From Methylophilus sp. (GTDB lineage: Bacteria; Pseudomonadota; Gammaproteobacteria; Burkholderiales; Methylophilaceae), in NCBI GenBank assembly GCA_035565395.1, contig DATMSK010000207.1, forward strand, positions 1 to 32,808: 32,808 bases of DNA, given 5' to 3'. Under the pieces are notes generated by a model that was given only the letters and a program-made list of their open reading frames with translations, was not told the origin of the DNA and searched no databases. This document shows, in pieces, positions 447 to 7,954 of this stretch. The first letter of the stretch is position 1. Each line of letters starts with the position of its first letter. A program made the position numbers and the translations under genes.

Positions 447-547
447 CAGAGTTGCTCCTGCCATTAAATTCAAACCATTATGGTACGTGATTAAGCCGCC
501 GAGGTGAATCTTGGCTGGTCGCCGTGCCTGTCCCCTGGCATTTTGGT

Positions 548-553
548 TACAAT
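548..553 (+). promoter_or_regulatory. Putative -10 box (TACAAT) for rsmE, 6 nt before the ATG
   Basis: TACAAT at 548-553, ATG at 560, no Shine-Dalgarno in between. Confidence 0.5.
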
Positions 554-559
554 GCCAGC

Positions 560-1294
560 ATGAGTAATTTACGATTTCATAGCCCAACTGCATTAGCAGT
601 CGGCCAGCAAGCGCCCCTGAGTGAAAATGCCATGGCACATGCAGTGCGGGTCATGCGGCTGAAGGTGGGCGATACACTGACGCTGTTTTGTGGTGATGGC
701 TTTGACTACCAATGCGCACTGACCAGCATCGAGAAAAAGTCCGCACAGGTTGAAGTATTGAGCCACATTGAAGTCAGCAATGAGTCACCGCTGACCATCC
801 GCTTACTGCAAGGCATTTCTAGTGGCGACCGCATGGATTACACCATCCAGAAAGCGGTAGAGCTAGGCGTGACCGAGATTTACCCACTCAGTACGGAGCG
901 CTGTTTGACCAAACTTAGTGGCGACCGTGCCGAGAAGCGCATTGAGCATTGGCAAGGAGTTGCCATTGCCGCCTGTGAGCAAAGCGGCCGCGCCATTGTG
1001 CCTACAGTACATGCACCACTCACACTGGCGCAATGGTTGAGCCAGCACGCCACCCCAGACTGCCTCAACCTGTTGCTCAACCCGGTCGGGGCAAAACGTC
1101 TTGCAGCATTGAGCAAACCAGCCAATGCCACGCATTTGCTGATAGGCCCGGAAGGTGGCCTGAGCCCTGCGGAAATAGCGCTTGCCACGCAACACCACTT
1201 TCAGTCTATCGTGCTTGGCCCAAGAATTTTGCGCACTGAAACTGCCGCCCTCACCGCCATCGCCAGCATGCAGTCACTTTGGGGTGACTTTTAG
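560..1294 (+). CDS. rsmE: 16S rRNA m3U1498 methyltransferase RsmE
   Basis: HAVRVMRL, QKAVELGV, AACEQSGR, LIGPEGGLS and LGPRILRTETA are SPOUT/RsmE motifs. ATG 560 is preferred over GTG 524. Confidence 0.95.
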   Translation: MSNLRFHSPTALAVGQQAPLSENAMAHAVRVMRLKVGDTLTLFCGDGFDYQCALTSIEKKSAQVEVLSHIEVSNESPLTIRLLQGISSGDRMDYTIQKAVELGVTEIYPLSTERCLTKLSGDRAEKRIEHWQGVAIAACEQSGRAIVPTVHAPLTLAQWLSQHATPDCLNLLLNPVGAKRLAALSKPANATHLLIGPEGGLSPAEIALATQHHFQSIVLGPRILRTETAALTAIASMQSLWGDF

Positions 1295-1300
1295 GCACGC

Positions 1301-2230
1301 ATGTTTCAAGTCATGTTACAGATGGCGTTACTGATTGCCGCTGGCATGCTCTGGCAGCGGCTGGCGCCTGACCATATCCCAGCCATTTCTCACAGACGTG
1401 CACTGACAGATCTCGTTTTTTATATTCTGCTACCGGCACTGGTGATTGATGTCTTGTGGCAAGCGCCGCTGGACGCAGATACCTTTAGCATCCAACTGAC
1501 CGCAATTTCCCGGCTGTCCGTGGCGGCATTACTGATGTGGCTGTGCCTGCAGGTACTCAAAAGATTCTTTGATGTTCCCCGCGCGCAGCAGGGCGCGTTG
1601 ATGCTGGCAGCGACATTTCCTAACGCCACCTATCTTGGCTTGCCGGTCACCAGCGAAGTGCTGGGAGATTGGGCGCACGAGATGGTGCTCAAATTTGACC
1701 TGTTTGCCTGCACGCCCATTCTGCTATCGCTGGGAATGCTGCTGGGACAACACTATGGCGAGGCTGCCACCAAAAGCAATCCGTTCAAGGAACTGATTCG
1801 TGTACCGCCTTTGTGGGCATTGGTGATTGCCTGCGCATTGAATCTGCTGCATGTCCCTCAACCTGAAATGATTGCGCATGCCCTACATACGCTGGCCGGT
1901 GGCGTGATTCCGCTCATGCTGGTCGCACTGGGCATGAGCATCCGCTGGGATACCTTTAAACTCAGATTGATTCCGCTACTATTGCCCGTATGTGTAATTG
2001 GTTTACTGATTGCACCCCTGGCGGCACGTTATGCCGCAATTGCCCTCGGGCTGCATGGCAACCAGTTAACTGCCTGCATCCTGCTCGCGGCCATGCCAAC
2101 CATGGTCTTTGGTATTGTCATTTGTGAGCGCTATCGCCTTGATGGCGCTCTGTATGCCGCCGCCGTCTTCATGAGTACCTTGCTCAGCATCGCCAGCCTG
2201 TCACTGTGGTTCGTCATACTTCAGCCATAA
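1301..2230 (+). CDS. AEC (auxin efflux carrier) family membrane transporter
   Basis: 309 aa with about 10 hydrophobic segments; FYILLPAL, FPNATYLGLP and AAMPT motifs are typical of AEC/Mem_trans. Confidence 0.85.
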   Translation: MFQVMLQMALLIAAGMLWQRLAPDHIPAISHRRALTDLVFYILLPALVIDVLWQAPLDADTFSIQLTAISRLSVAALLMWLCLQVLKRFFDVPRAQQGALMLAATFPNATYLGLPVTSEVLGDWAHEMVLKFDLFACTPILLSLGMLLGQHYGEAATKSNPFKELIRVPPLWALVIACALNLLHVPQPEMIAHALHTLAGGVIPLMLVALGMSIRWDTFKLRLIPLLLPVCVIGLLIAPLAARYAAIALGLHGNQLTACILLAAMPTMVFGIVICERYRLDGALYAAAVFMSTLLSIASLSLWFVILQP

Positions 2231-2400
2231 ACGCTCCATATTATTTCTCTTCAAACTCATGAAATCTCGCATGCCGTGTGAATTTTTATCAGGCACGCTG
2301 TCATACGTCATATGACGAGTAGCCAACAGGCCAGGCTGTTTTTAAGATACTGCTAAACAGTCATTCTTTCGTATTGTGTATTTGGGATTATCAGAAGATC

Positions 2401-3573
2401 ATGCCGAAAACCACGACCAACCAATATATTGCGCCGCAACCCACGCCGCCAGCCACGCTGGTCAGTCTGCTGGCTGAAACAGGCGTCACCATCAATGGCA
2501 ATGCGCCTTGGGATATCCAGGTGTATGAAGAAAGCGTATACCGTGATGTGCTGACCAAAGGTACGCTGGGACTGGGGCAGGCATTTATTGAAGGCCGCTG
2601 GGACTGTAAGCGTCTTGATGAGTTTTTCCACCGGGTCATGCGTGCAGACATTGATGAAAAAATGGGCGGCATGGCAAAACTCAAACTGCTGGGCGAAATC
2701 ATACGGCACTCGTTTTTCAACCTGCAAACACCTGACCGCGCCTACCAGGTGGCGCAACAGCATTACGATATTGGCAACGATGTATTTGAAGCCATGCTGG
2801 ACAGCAGCATGAGCTATTCATGTGCCTACTGGGAGCATGCCAGCACACTGGAAGAAGCCCAGTTCAACAAACTGGATATGATTTGCCGCAAGCTGGACCT
2901 GCAACCAGGTGACCGGGTACTGGAAATCGGTTGTGGCTGGGGCGGCCTGGCCAAGCACATGGCGAAATATTATGGGGTGCAAGTGGTCGGCATCACGGTG
3001 TCAGTCGAGCAACAGGCACTGGCTAAAGAGCGTTGCGCTGGTTTGGCAGTGGATATCCAGCTCAAGGACTACCGTGAGCTGCATGGCCAGTACGACAAAA
3101 TTGTCTCTGTCGGCATGTTTGAGCACGTTGGTCCGAAAAACTACGAGGTGTACTTTGCAACCGCGAAACGCCTGCTGAAGGACAACGGGCTGTTTTTACT
3201 GCATACCATTGGTAATTACAAAACCGCCCTGCACACGGACGCCTGGATAGACCGCTATATTTTCCCTAACGGCAAATTACCTTCTGCCAGTGAAATAACG
3301 AATGCCATTGAGCAAGAATTCCTGATTGAGGACTGGCATAACTTTGGCCCGGATTATGACCGCACGCTGATGGCGTGGTGGGACAAATTTAACCGGGCCT
3401 GGCCGGAACTACAGTTTAAATATGATGAAAGTTTTTACCGTATGTGGAAATACTACCTGATGTGTTGTGCAGGTTATTTCCGCTCGCGGCAAGGGCAACT
3501 CTGGCAACTGGTACTAAGCAAACGGCAGAGCAACCGTATTTACCGCTCGGTACGTCCGCTGCCAGCAAGTTGA
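2401..3573 (+). CDS. cfa: Cyclopropane-fatty-acyl-phospholipid synthase
   Basis: HYDIGND, MSYSCAYW, SAM-binding VLEIGCGWG, SVGMFEHVG, YIFPNG and RMWKYYL motifs. ATG 2401 is preferred over GTG 2374. Confidence 0.93.
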   Translation: MPKTTTNQYIAPQPTPPATLVSLLAETGVTINGNAPWDIQVYEESVYRDVLTKGTLGLGQAFIEGRWDCKRLDEFFHRVMRADIDEKMGGMAKLKLLGEIIRHSFFNLQTPDRAYQVAQQHYDIGNDVFEAMLDSSMSYSCAYWEHASTLEEAQFNKLDMICRKLDLQPGDRVLEIGCGWGGLAKHMAKYYGVQVVGITVSVEQQALAKERCAGLAVDIQLKDYRELHGQYDKIVSVGMFEHVGPKNYEVYFATAKRLLKDNGLFLLHTIGNYKTALHTDAWIDRYIFPNGKLPSASEITNAIEQEFLIEDWHNFGPDYDRTLMAWWDKFNRAWPELQFKYDESFYRMWKYYLMCCAGYFRSRQGQLWQLVLSKRQSNRIYRSVRPLPAS

Positions 3574-3603: not shown

Positions 3604-3629
3604 ATGACGGCTTTTGCCGTCATTTTTTT
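3604..3629 (+). terminator. Rho-independent terminator after cfa
   Basis: Hairpin ATGACGGC-TTTT-GCCGTCAT followed by six Ts. Confidence 0.85.
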
Positions 3630-3776
3630 GCCCCAGGATTGTAATAAAAGCATTTCTTCACTACCGATACGCACCGATCGAACTCAAACAATCCCAGCCT
3701 CTGACACTGCTTGCTTATTTCTTCATCTGCAAGCTGATACAGACCTTCGCCCAATCGAGAAAACACCCTATATTAT

Positions 3777-3805
3777 TTGCAATAAAAACCATTTTTATTT
3801 ATTAT
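3777..3805 (+). promoter_or_regulatory. Sigma70 promoter of HTH-argA
   Basis: TTGCAA (3777-3782), 17-bp spacer, TATTAT (3800-3805); about 30 nt upstream of ATG 3835. Confidence 0.7.
3781..3799. promoter_or_regulatory. Palindromic operator candidate 1 (8-3-8)
   Basis: AATAAAAA-CCA-TTTTTATT is a perfect inverted repeat filling the -35/-10 spacer. Confidence 0.5.
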
Positions 3806-3810
3806 TTTGC

Positions 3811-3826
3811 AAATTAATCTTAATTT
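3811..3826. promoter_or_regulatory. Palindromic operator candidate 2 (7-2-7)
   Basis: AAATTAA-TC-TTAATTT is a perfect inverted repeat over the predicted transcription start and 5' UTR. Confidence 0.45.
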
Positions 3827-3834
3827 AACGACAA

Positions 3835-5403
3835 ATGCTTGGATCAAACATTAGAGATTTGCGTAAATCGCAAAATTTAACCTTGCAACAGTTGGCCGCC
3901 CGCATGGGTACCGATGCCAGTAATTTGTCACGCATAGAGCGCGGCGAAATCGGCATCTCCGAAGCCTTGCTGCGCGCGGCCGCACAAGCCTTGAACACCA
4001 CACCCGGCCGCCTGTACGACGCAAACCTGACACCGGTGTCGCTCACCAACACACCTCCAGCGATTCTTTCGAGTGCCAACAGCAAGGATTTTGTACACTG
4101 GTTCCGCTCAGCAGCGCCCTACATCCATGCCTTTGGCGGTAGCACGTTTGTCATTGCTTTTGGCGGGGAAGTGGTCAGCGAACAACAGTTCATCGCCCTG
4201 TCACACGACCTTAACCTGCTTGCCAGCCTGGAAGTCAGGCTGGTACTGGTACATGGGGCACGGCCGCAAATCGAGCAGCGGCTCAAACGCGACAACCTGA
4301 CACCCAAACTACATAATGGCCGGCGGATCACGGACGATGCAGCCATGGAAGCGGTAAAAGAGGCCAATGGTGCCATTCGTGTGGAAATTGAGTCACTGCT
4401 CTCCATGGGCATTGCCAACTCACCAATGGCCGGGAGTGACATCCGCGTGGCCAGCGGAAATTTTGTGACCGCCAAACCCCTGGGCGTCCGCGAAGGTGTG
4501 GACCTGCAACATACCGGCGAAGTGCGCAAGATCGATGCCATAGGCATCCAGAAACGGCTGGATGACGGCGAGTTGGTGTTATTGTCACCTATGGGCTACT
4601 CACCCACCGGCGAAACCTTCAACCTGACACTGGAAGATGTGGCCGTGAGTGCCGCGATTGCGCTAGATGCGGAAAAACTGATTTTCCTCATGGACTCAGA
4701 AGGCGTACAAAATTTACGTGGTGAACTGCTACGCGAAATGACCTCTGCCAAAGCCAAGAACCTGTTACGCAATGTGCAGGAAAGTGACGAGCCGATTCAT
4801 TACTCGGAAGATGTGAATTACTACCTGCCTGCCGCTGTACGCGCCTGCGAGCATGGCGTGGCCAGGACGCACCTGATTTCGCGCCACATTGATGGCGCCA
4901 TTATCCAGGAGCTGTTTACGCGGCAGGGCATAGGCACCATGATTACCGAGCTACCCTTGGAAACCATGCGCCAGGCCAATATTGACGATGTGGGTGGCAT
5001 CCTGATGCTGATTGAGCCACTGGAAAATGAAGGCATCCTGGTACGGCGCGGGCGCGAACGCATAGAAATGGAAATCAACTATTTTTATGTCATGGAACAT
5101 GATAACCGCGTCATTGGCTGTGCGGCCCTGTATCCATTCCCACAGGAAAAAATGGTGGAATTTGCCTGCCTGGCCATAGATCCGGCTTATCGTGGCGGAG
5201 GCCGTGGCGACAAATTGTTTAACTTTTGCCAGCAACAAGCCAGCCAAAAAGGCTTTAAAAAGCTGTTTTGCCTGACGACGCGTACCGAGCACTGGTTCCT
5301 TGAACGTGGATTTACCGAACTGGAAATAGACCAATTGCCCCAGGAAAAGCAAAAACTCTACAATTTTCAGAGAAAATCCAAAGTTTTCATCAAATCGTTA
5401 TGA
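3835..5403 (+). CDS. argA: Amino-acid N-acetyltransferase (N-acetylglutamate synthase) ArgA with fused N-terminal XRE-family HTH domain
   Basis: Residues 1-62 read as HTH_XRE (IRDLRKSQNLTLQQLAARMGTDASNLSRIERGE). Classical ArgA begins at F86 (FVHWFRSAAPYIH), followed by the AAK domain (LVHGARPQI, ELFTRQGIGT) and the C-terminal GNAT domain (IGCAALYPF, YRGGGRGD, TEHWFLERGF, YNFQRKSK). Confidence 0.95.
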   Translation: MLGSNIRDLRKSQNLTLQQLAARMGTDASNLSRIERGEIGISEALLRAAAQALNTTPGRLYDANLTPVSLTNTPPAILSSANSKDFVHWFRSAAPYIHAFGGSTFVIAFGGEVVSEQQFIALSHDLNLLASLEVRLVLVHGARPQIEQRLKRDNLTPKLHNGRRITDDAAMEAVKEANGAIRVEIESLLSMGIANSPMAGSDIRVASGNFVTAKPLGVREGVDLQHTGEVRKIDAIGIQKRLDDGELVLLSPMGYSPTGETFNLTLEDVAVSAAIALDAEKLIFLMDSEGVQNLRGELLREMTSAKAKNLLRNVQESDEPIHYSEDVNYYLPAAVRACEHGVARTHLISRHIDGAIIQELFTRQGIGTMITELPLETMRQANIDDVGGILMLIEPLENEGILVRRGRERIEMEINYFYVMEHDNRVIGCAALYPFPQEKMVEFACLAIDPAYRGGGRGDKLFNFCQQQASQKGFKKLFCLTTRTEHWFLERGFTELEIDQLPQEKQKLYNFQRKSKVFIKSL

Positions 5404-5462: not shown

Positions 5463-6356
<894 letters not shown>

Positions 6357-6394: not shown

Positions 6395-7051
6395 ATGTCA
6401 CGCAGGGTGTGGATTTTCGATCTGGATGACACCCTGCACAACGCATCTGCCCATATCTTTCCGGTCATGAACCAATGCATGACCCATTACATCATGCAGA
6501 CGCTAGACATGGAGGAAGCCGCAGCCCACCAATTACGCCAGCATTACTGGCGTATTTATGGCGCCACTCTCAAGGGGCTGATGCGGCACCATGGTGTGAA
6601 TCCACATCATTTCCTGGCAGAAACACACGCCTTCCTGACGGACGATATGGTACAAACCACGCGCCAGTTGAGGCAACTACTCAACAGCTTACCTGGGCGC
6701 AAATGTGTCTTTACCAATGCGCCTCGCGCCTATGCCATGCGCGTCCTTGAAGTGCTGGGCATTGCCGATTGTTTTTCACTGGTCTTTAGCGTCGAATCCA
6801 GCCGCTTTCATGCCAAACCCAGCATGCGCGGGTTCCGGATGTTACTCAGGCAATTGCGTTGCCGTGCGGCAGATTGCACCCTGTTTGAGGACAGCCTGCC
6901 CGCCTTGATGACGGCCAAGCGATTAGGCATGCGTACGGTATGGATTAGTCGCCGCTTGCACAAACCAAACTTTGTACAATATAGGTTGCCACATGTGTTG
7001 GCACTCACTCACAGCGCTCTCAAAAAAGGGCAAAATGCATTCCCGTGCTAG
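6395..7051 (+). CDS. HAD-superfamily pyrimidine 5'-nucleotidase-like hydrolase
   Basis: WIFDLDDTLH (motif I), YGATLKGL, FTNA, KP and FEDS motifs; usual argB-HAD-slmA context. Confidence 0.88.
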   Translation: MSRRVWIFDLDDTLHNASAHIFPVMNQCMTHYIMQTLDMEEAAAHQLRQHYWRIYGATLKGLMRHHGVNPHHFLAETHAFLTDDMVQTTRQLRQLLNSLPGRKCVFTNAPRAYAMRVLEVLGIADCFSLVFSVESSRFHAKPSMRGFRMLLRQLRCRAADCTLFEDSLPALMTAKRLGMRTVWISRRLHKPNFVQYRLPHVLALTHSALKKGQNAFPC

Positions 7052-7068
7052 GCGAATGCGGTTAAAAT
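7040..7068 (+). promoter_or_regulatory. Possible internal sigma70 promoter for slmA
   Basis: TTCCCG (7040-7045), 17-bp spacer, TAAAAT (7063-7068). Confidence 0.35.
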
Positions 7069-7114
7069 ACCTGCCAAATAACAACATGAATATGGGCTGA
7101 TCCTGGAAATCATT

Positions 7115-7708
7115 ATGGCAACGATCAATAAAGAAGCACGCGCAAACCGCAAGCAGCAGATTCTGGAAACACTGGCAGGCATGCTGCAAAATCCACGCGG
7201 CGAAAAGATTACCACGGCAGCCCTGGCAGCCAAGCTGGAGGTCTCTGAAGCAGCGTTATACCGCCACTTTGCCAACAAGGCAAAAATGTTTGAAGGCCTG
7301 ATTGAGTTTATTGAGGGCGCACTCTTTGGCGTCATGAATAAAATTACGACGGACGAAACCGATGGCCTTAAACAGGTACAGCTGATGCTGCAGACCATGC
7401 TCAAGTTTGCCGAACGCAATCCTGGCATGTCGCGCGTATTGATCGGCGACGCACTCGTGAATGAAGATGAATCCTTACAGGCCCGTATTAACCAGTTGCT
7501 GGACCGGCTTGAGGCCAGCCTCAAGCAGTCATTGCGTATCGCCGAAGCACAAGGCCATAAGGTTGCGGATGCGGGAATTGCGGCCAACACCCTCATCAGC
7601 TTTGTGCTGGGCCGTTGGCACGCCTTTGCCAAAAGCGGATTCAAACGTAAACCGAGTGACAACCTTGAACAGCATGTCACACAACTGATTACCAGCTGTT
7701 TGCAATAA
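7115..7708 (+). CDS. slmA: Nucleoid occlusion factor SlmA (TetR family)
   Basis: RKQQILETLAGML, KITTAALAAKLEVSEAALYRHF and KMFEGLIEFIE are SlmA-specific. Confidence 0.93.
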   Translation: MATINKEARANRKQQILETLAGMLQNPRGEKITTAALAAKLEVSEAALYRHFANKAKMFEGLIEFIEGALFGVMNKITTDETDGLKQVQLMLQTMLKFAERNPGMSRVLIGDALVNEDESLQARINQLLDRLEASLKQSLRIAEAQGHKVADAGIAANTLISFVLGRWHAFAKSGFKRKPSDNLEQHVTQLITSCLQ

Positions 7709-7729
7709 AAGATGTAGAAAGTGTCATAG

Positions 7730-7954
7730 ATGGAAAACACCGTTTTTGGGATGAACGAAGCCCAGCTCACCGAGTTTGGCATGAGTTGGGGCCTCGCTGG
7801 TCTGATTCTGTTCATCGTGTTTATTGTCGGCAACCTGGCCTGGAAGTCCAAAGCGGGTAAAACCGGGACATTTGCGTTATTTCTTGCCCTCACCTTGGGC
7901 ATGGTTGGCTTTCTGGCTAAACTGCTTATTCAGCATTACCTGGATATCCATTAA
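7730..7954 (+). CDS. Small two-TM membrane protein, DUF2788-like
   Basis: 74 aa; the FIVGNLAWKSKAGKTGT...L.LGMVGF pattern recalls DUF2788. Confidence 0.8.
   Translation: MENTVFGMNEAQLTEFGMSWGLAGLILFIVFIVGNLAWKSKAGKTGTFALFLALTLGMVGFLAKLLIQHYLDIH

Follow-up and report, generated by a model that had tools for sequence, protein, structure and literature searches.

An XRE-type DNA-binding domain fused to N-acetylglutamate synthase throughout the Methylophilaceae: a candidate trigger enzyme with predicted operators at argA and metW

Introduction

Several metabolic enzymes carry a DNA-binding domain in the same polypeptide. Such fused trigger enzymes (PMC5397151, PMC6524683), which include PutA, BirA, NadR, and the archaeal RbkR, serve here as the class of comparison; RbkR was first identified by comparative reasoning of the kind used here, and in vitro work later confirmed it (PMC5397151). 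Classical ArgA, the N-acetylglutamate synthase (NAGS) known from N. gonorrhoeae (PDB 2r8v, 3d2p), combines an amino acid kinase (AAK) domain with a GNAT domain. As described in PMC4490483, the N-terminal helices of that enzyme interlace pairwise, and arginine, bound beside this helix, makes the ring about 10 Å wider. The terms helix-turn-helix, DNA-binding, transcription, and fusion do not occur in a review of NAGS, and no description of a helix-turn-helix (HTH)-ArgA fusion was found in the literature searched, most subscription journals and supplements lying outside its scope.

The window, by which we mean the whole 32,808-nt stretch of Methylophilus sp. DNA analyzed here (contig DATMSK010000207.1), encodes a protein that shares with classical ArgA the AAK and GNAT domains, the arginine motif, and the catalytic residues, and that has in addition an N-terminal XRE HTH and a linker, both of which classical ArgA lacks. 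A DNA-binding domain and an intact enzyme stand in one conserved chain, as in the fused trigger enzymes. As in PutA, BirA, NadR, and RbkR, the metabolic enzyme bears a DNA-binding domain, and here it is predicted to be the likely sensor; the fusion differs from all four in the enzyme, the pathway, the presumed hexameric AAK scaffold, the presumed allosteric end-product sensor, and its range, which is a single family. Like ArgR/AhrC, it is presumed to form a hexamer that binds arginine and represses through tandem palindromes at argA. However, the two are not homologous, with no PF01316 match in the fusion, their boxes are different, and whereas ArgR controls argABCEFGH and carAB (PMC5343134), the box attributed to the fusion was found at argA and metW only. 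The HTH of Cro/CI-like XRE repressors (HTH_3 plus Peptidase_S24, phrog_4) resembles that of the fusion, recognition helix included (P0193, P0203), and these repressors have tandem operators over their own promoters, as the fused argA appears to have in candidate form; the fusion has ArgA in place of the S24 domain and sits at a housekeeping chromosomal locus. From these comparisons of sequence, we lean toward reading the fusion as a trigger enzyme, one whose targets for repression are argA(-argB) and probably metW and whose switch is likely arginine.

Results

Architecture and integrity of the fusion gene

The XRE-HTH/ArgA fusion gene occupies positions 3835..5403 of the forward strand as a single uninterrupted ORF of 522 aa, just as an earlier note on this DNA had read it. 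Contigs from three independent DNA studies carry the gene with no indel or joint, and the substitutions listed between 3835 and 4200 fall at third codon positions. With these independent contigs intact, an assembly artifact over 3835-5403 is ruled out. A contig from an RNA library (3762-4243), which may be of DNA origin and gives no start site or level, likewise spans the HTH-ArgA junction. A stop or frameshift separating the HTH from argA, which the earlier note had named as evidence against its proposal, was seen neither in these contigs nor as a clean split in the seven non-standard family matches described below.

At the N terminus, the Pfam profile HTH_3 matches residues 6-58 (3850..4008, forward strand; E = 1.5e-11, 44.6 bits against a cutoff of 23), and this match together with the five-helix fold places the domain in the XRE (Cro/C1) class to which it had first been assigned. 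Residues 27-37 (3913..3945, forward strand), which we take from knowledge of the XRE family to be the recognition helix, include N30, L31, S32, R33, and E35, invariant in 64/64 orthologues. Pfam further detects AA_kinase at residues 104-349 and Acetyltransf_1 at 412-482, and the NCBIfam ArgA profiles PRK05279 (689 bits against a cutoff of 344) and TIGR01890 (575 bits against 203) span residues 81-522 and 86-522. The second of these agrees with the placement, in the earlier note, of the start of a complete ArgA at F86, encoded at nt 4090. An internal start between the domains had been thought absent, and this reading stands: in the translation, M24 is followed by no further Met until M171, and the alternative starts over residues 40-100 are TTG, CTG, and GTG only, none of which has, by eye, an obvious Shine-Dalgarno sequence. 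Because the sources name these proteins merely "amino-acid N-acetyltransferase," any second role is hidden in the annotation.

Selection on the HTH and the character of the linker

Pooled dN/dS values (NG86 over 11 disjoint pairs), which are rough because dS is near 1, are 0.033 for the HTH, 0.007 for residues 27-37, 0.017 for AAK, 0.033 for GNAT, and 0.152 for the linker. By this measure the HTH, which is conserved among the orthologues, is under strong purifying selection at a value equal to that of the GNAT domain. The linker (4018..4086, forward strand), which had been described as rich in Pro, Thr, and Ser, is not conserved as such: the stretch from residue 60 to residue 86 ranges from 12 to 48 aa across the 64 orthologues. 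In a monomer model (pTM 0.53, which leaves the orientation of the domains unfixed), pLDDT is 78-87 over residues 1-60 and low over the linker, which is poorly ordered. So variable a linker, low in pLDDT, is more readily seen as a loose tether than as a lever, and it argues against the rigid repositioning of six HTH heads that had been envisaged.

The enzyme half

The best match of the fusion in both sequence and fold is classical NAGS (N. gonorrhoeae; PDB 2r8v, 3d2p). Its AAK domain (4087..4950, forward strand), delimited by Pfam, NCBIfam, structure alignment, and a dimer model, comprises the N-terminal helix, the oligomerization region, and the arginine site. The arginine-site motif given in PMC4490483 is E-(L/I)-(F/M)-(T/S)-x-x-G-x-G-T plus a key Lys; in the alignment to 2r8v it corresponds to E-L-F-T-x-x-G-x-G-T of the fusion (E359-T368; 4909..4938, forward strand), with K281 and Y96, the arginine-site residues K201 and E270 falling on K281 and E359. 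K281, E359, L360, F361, T362, G365, G367, and T368 are present in 64/64 orthologues. In the GNAT catalytic domain (4960..5400, forward strand), R405, E442, C445, T481, R513, and S515 align with R316, E353, C356, S392, R425, and S427 of N. gonorrhoeae NAGS (residue names from PMC4490483). The mapped arginine-site and catalytic residues are invariant or nearly so, the counterpart of S392 being Thr481. Both sets of residues are intact and the HTH is under purifying selection, so that both halves of the protein look functional.

Modeled in two copies, residues 1-372 gave a score of 0.52, a mark reached in this test by 20/30 solved pairs and 1/23 single chains, against 0.00 for the best control. 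The interface is AAK-AAK (residues 175-261), and separate runs share at least 85% of their contacts at a pLDDT of at least 80; the model passes through its likeness to solved NAGS/NAGK. No HTH residue is among the confident contacts, residues outside that list being uncertain rather than apart.

Distribution and origin

The fusion query matched 149/151 Methylophilaceae genomes, and 143 of the 150 matches listed (six more lie beyond) start within the HTH, at residues 1-12. The other seven comprise two long-linker fusions, an N-gap in the linker (L281, G056), two frameshifts inside the AAK domain (L283 in G014 and L282 in G134), and two contig ends; the frameshifts and the N-gap are probably assembly errors. 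AA_kinase is also present in all 120 relatives listed for residues 1-100; those among them that bear a name belong to Methylophilus, Methylotenera, or Methylophilaceae, from which we infer that the fusion belongs to this family. In every orthologue read, bar one with an assembly gap, the HTH is in frame with the start of ArgA. The fusion is retained in two genera with genomes of 1.2-1.4 Mb, which we take to be Methylopumilus and OM43. Two loci from the most divergent streamlined genomes (L045 and L066, genus g27) have the recognition helix NLSKIEQG and a very short linker. Outside the family, none of the 142 matches listed from the same order begins before residue 52 (139 weaker ones lie beyond, and the tally includes the unpublished G176), and a match to residues 1-100 at an E of 1e-12 occurs in 0/399 of the other genomes scored from the class. 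The architecture, whose taxonomic spread the earlier note had proposed to map, is family-wide in Methylophilaceae, probably of single origin, and not found outside the family in the order and class searches.

Sixty-five fused ArgA proteins (of 70 loci, the five left out also having the HTH) form one clade against 20 unfused ones with a FastTree support of 0.815, and no HTH lies near any of the 20 unfused sister argA genes. The gene rsmE is directly upstream in 16/20 of these sister loci and no more than 300 nt upstream in 40/65 fused loci. The nearest stand-alone HTHs include CI-like proteins with HTH_3 plus Peptidase_S24; a search for shorter stand-alone forms gave two matches only, both looking like fragments of the fusion. 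The single fused clade, the rsmE synteny, the lack of an HTH near unfused argA, and the CI-like nearest HTHs point to a single insertion: the HTH was probably captured once, with its own autoregulated promoter, from a CI-like repressor inserting between rsmE and argA.

In most relatives rsmE abuts argA. In the window (524-3573) the two are kept apart by a gene for a membrane transporter and one for a cyclopropane fatty acid synthase (cfa). A terminator-like hairpin after cfa (3604..3623, forward strand) sets these upstream genes apart from the argA promoter. Downstream, the likely cotranscribed argB (acetylglutamate kinase; 5475..6356, forward strand; TIGR00761, 256 bits) starts 71 nt past the end of the fused argA and is strongly conserved, mostly at 83-97% identity. 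Because argB comes next after argA in 39/65 fused loci of the family versus 0/20 unfused sister loci, it may have been brought under the control of the new candidate operator. Further along, an ORF of 284 aa on the reverse strand (7048-7902) is without a Pfam or NCBIfam match.

Palindromic boxes at the argA promoter

Two palindromes of the form TGYR-W5-YRCA (Y = C/T, R = A/G, W = A/T) lie upstream of the fused argA. In the window, candidate operator box 1 (3778..3790) overlaps the -35 element of a sigma70-like promoter, TTGCAA-17-TATTAT (3777..3805, forward strand; a consensus match only, with the same geometry in relatives), and candidate box 2 (3808..3820), 30 bp from box 1, lies just after the -10; the right half of each is decayed in this clade. 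One box over the -35 and another just after the -10 make up a repressor layout. With the spacing left free, the spacer is 16-18 nt, or 29-31 bp from center to center, in 57/65 loci. The pair beats dinucleotide shuffles in 63/65 fused promoters versus 0/20 unfused ones; the matrix excluded the genus under test in each case, and at most 3/60 shuffles were allowed to reach the score. This test partly scores the -35, which is the left half of box 1, and AT content is 0.74 in the fused promoters versus 0.32-0.65 in the unfused. A strict double-box pattern was found in 78/151 genomes (reversed control, 0), and the matches listed sit mostly at argA, with 46 further matches beyond. Terminator-like and repeat sequences occur among the other double-box matches.

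The half-sites change with the protein. TGTA makes up 87/96 half-sites at loci whose proteins read A28-G29..L39 versus 4/120 where they read x-G..Q39; loci of the latter type use TGCG, TGCT, and TGCA, and one Q39 member nested inside the L39 clade is without TGTA. This co-change amounts to about three clade-level events among kin rather than to independent samples. The conserved palindromes are thus operator candidates at the gene's own promoter, assigned to the fusion by correlation. The fused HTH likely binds TGYR-W5-YRCA and represses the argA(-argB) promoter, and we hold autorepression through the candidate boxes to be highly probable. At L049 and other loci of genus g35, in several genomes, three tandem boxes about 30 bp apart lie upstream of argA; these would match three HTH pairs.

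In the S29 clade (8 loci), to which the window belongs, the right halves of both promoter boxes are lost, and a full box lies at argA codons 9-13 in 8/8 loci, with a score of at least 9 in 3/57 others. In the window, this candidate operator box 3, TGCGTAAATCGCA, is at 3860..3872, 52 bp from box 2. Its p value per sequence is 0.015-0.045 against synonymous resampling, and its codons TTG, AAA, TCG, and CAA are fixed in 8/8 loci; elsewhere in the gene, four-fold columns are fixed in this clade in 0/19 cases in the rest of the HTH and in 4/96 in AAK. We read the loss of the promoter boxes and the gain of box 3 as operator turnover, which would be the best sign that a candidate site is still in use in the window's clade. 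Taken singly, boxes can arise by chance: those scoring above 13 number 31 in the window's genome, against 10-28 for permuted matrices.

A second candidate target at metW

The box recurs at the start of the metW coding sequence, downstream of metX. In the window's genome, a double box with elements 30 bp apart (G000:C126:6229-6271; L126:3030-3072) lies there behind a predicted succinyl-type metX, and its score of 28.3 is the second best genome-wide, the best permuted-matrix score being 21.4. Boxes scoring at least 9 are present at metW in 30/50 family loci versus 0/15 outgroup loci, and within the family in 23/28 derived-clade loci and 7/22 elsewhere; none was found in the two streamlined genera sampled, nor in 2/3 basal members of the window's genus. 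In two genera, the codons GTA and ACA of the box are fixed in 14/14 loci around a middle codon that changes the amino acid, and 0/30 four-fold columns in the body of metW are fixed in those genera. In the window's clade, TTA and ACA are fixed in 8/8 loci versus 5/43 columns. Counting against this target are its patchy occurrence and the AT-richness of gene starts; only 11/28 derived-clade metW loci keep a p of <0.05 under an AT-boosted codon null. MetW is described as necessary for MetX activity in Pseudomonas (PMC13683966). Most betaproteobacteria control metXW through an RNA element that in Methylophilales is found at metZ (PMC4239095). Judged by its sites, metW is probably also repressed by the fusion, which suggests a link between arginine and methionine; no description of such a link was found in the literature searched.

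The top double-box score in the window's genome, 28.6, belongs to an inverted element of 45 bp (G000:C190:4538-4582; L132:2039-2083; also L274 and L275), flanked on one side by a gene for a probable efflux transporter and on the other by a divergent gene. It is kept in three genomes of the genus and may be the operator of another regulator. A single box-like site lies just upstream of a gene that is lepA-like by sequence (L277:1364, in G000:C70).

Scope of the predicted regulon

In five complete genomes, no box was found within 1.5 kb upstream of argJ, argC, argF (with argD), argG, argH, or carA; the best score at these six sites is at most 7.3 in 30/30 loci versus 14.7-23.1 bits at argA. The same genomes hold 91 exact TGYA-W5-TACA sites, of which 83 loci were compared and 7 others are argA or metW; no other arg gene recurred among the 83. 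The exact-match loci that recur are argA, metW, a mid-gene site (2 genomes), and a site in a short gene lying between fabG and fabF (2 genomes), and the last two were set aside as they look like coding matches. ArgR (PF01316) exceeds the cutoff in 0/101 family genomes. The carriers in this sample are without argR, then, as the earlier note had thought worth checking, but because ArgR is confined to gammaproteobacteria and betaproteobacteria lack it (PMC5343134), its absence says nothing special about this family. Without boxes at argC, argJ, argDFG, argH, and carA, the fusion is not an ArgR-like regulator of the pathway. The proposal that ArgA doubles as a transcription factor and an analogue of ArgR therefore divides: the conserved HTH, the candidate operator, and the intact arginine pocket speak for a regulatory role, whereas the pathway-wide part fails at 0/30 loci.

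Discussion

An HTH on ArgA, with matching palindromes in the gene's own promoter and at metW, suggests that the enzyme likely doubles as a repressor. We envisage a hexamer of the classical D3 type, in which the N-terminal helices would interlace pairwise; since the HTH hangs on this helix, the heads would emerge as three pairs. Each box would be occupied by one pair, and a distance of 3-5 helical turns (30, 42, and 52 bp) between boxes would be bridged by two pairs, with neighboring boxes on roughly the same face of the DNA. RNA polymerase would be blocked by protein bound over the -35 and the start site, and intragenic boxes would serve as roadblocks or looping anchors. Arginine, held beside the N-terminal helix, would raise the affinity for DNA, so that a single ligand would shut off the enzyme and its production alike. 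This is the least certain step, and against it stands the point that feedback inhibition by itself would suffice to preserve the arginine pocket; on balance, we are inclined to accept arginine control on top of autorepression. In the fullest version of the scheme, ArgA would be a hexameric repressor gated by arginine, reading tandem operators through the geometry of its ring and also throttling metW, the activator of MetX, by way of sites lying inside coding sequence; this version is tentative and rather unlikely to hold in every part.

The HTH could instead bind the boxes with arginine irrelevant, the hexamer serving only to oligomerize it and ArgA(-ArgB) being held at a fixed level. The long, variable, and poorly ordered linker would suit such an autorepressor, as would the narrow regulon with no other arg genes and the likely descent from an autoregulated CI-like repressor; moreover, ArgJ is present in 5/5 complete genomes, and alongside ArgJ, ArgA may merely top up the acetyl cycle. 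Yet a separate gene would suffice for that purpose, whereas the HTH stays in the ArgA frame in all but one of the orthologues read; it is also attached to the helix moved by arginine, and metW makes a more sensible second target if there is a metabolic signal. We regard a repressor of this kind as the main rival, possible but somewhat doubtful. It is improbable that the boxes belong to another regulator, for instance of the LysR type, with the fused HTH doing something else. LysR-type sites follow a T-N11-A rule, and the 13-bp boxes have that shape and a tandem arrangement. MetR is widespread in betaproteobacteria (PMC4239095), and a site at metW would suit a methionine regulator, but the boxes are missing from 20/20 unfused syntenic promoters and change with residues of the HTH. 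MetR itself was rejected as their owner, its consensus being ATGAA-N5-TTCAT (PMC4239095) against a C or T at position 3 in 96% of argA half-sites.

A role analogous to that of ArgR for the whole arginine pathway would accord with the lack of ArgR in 101 family genomes and with a presumed hexamer bearing an arginine site; set against scores of at most 7.3 in 30/30 other arg/carA loci and the lack of any other arg gene among the 83 compared, it is very improbable. Finally, half-decayed promoter boxes in the window's clade might mark the HTH as a vestigial or structural appendage, and the frameshifted copies in G014 and G134 and the N-gap in G056 might cast the fusion as an artifact. We give this hardly any credence: the HTH has a dN/dS of 0.033 and a near-invariant recognition helix, the fusion is retained in genomes of 1.2-1.4 Mb, and a new box appears precisely in the clade with the decayed ones, while independent contigs are intact and both frameshifts fall inside the AAK domain.

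The control of arginine genes in betaproteobacteria has been little studied, and for one family the fusion offers a specific answer in which both the predicted operator and the residues involved are named. A phage-type repressor domain appears to have been domesticated onto a housekeeping enzyme, and the change and turnover of its operators are visible on the tree. If the favored reading of the fusion as an arginine-responsive trigger enzyme is true, an amino acid biosynthetic enzyme with a well-studied allosteric switch would join the short list of fused enzyme-regulators. The metW sites stand out in a lineage where, by the account in PMC4239095, the usual RNA element has left metXW. Were the reading to hold there as well, one enzyme would couple methionine synthesis, at its entry step, to arginine status across a whole family of one-carbon specialists, a coupling that would extend to its streamlined members, which retain the fusion.
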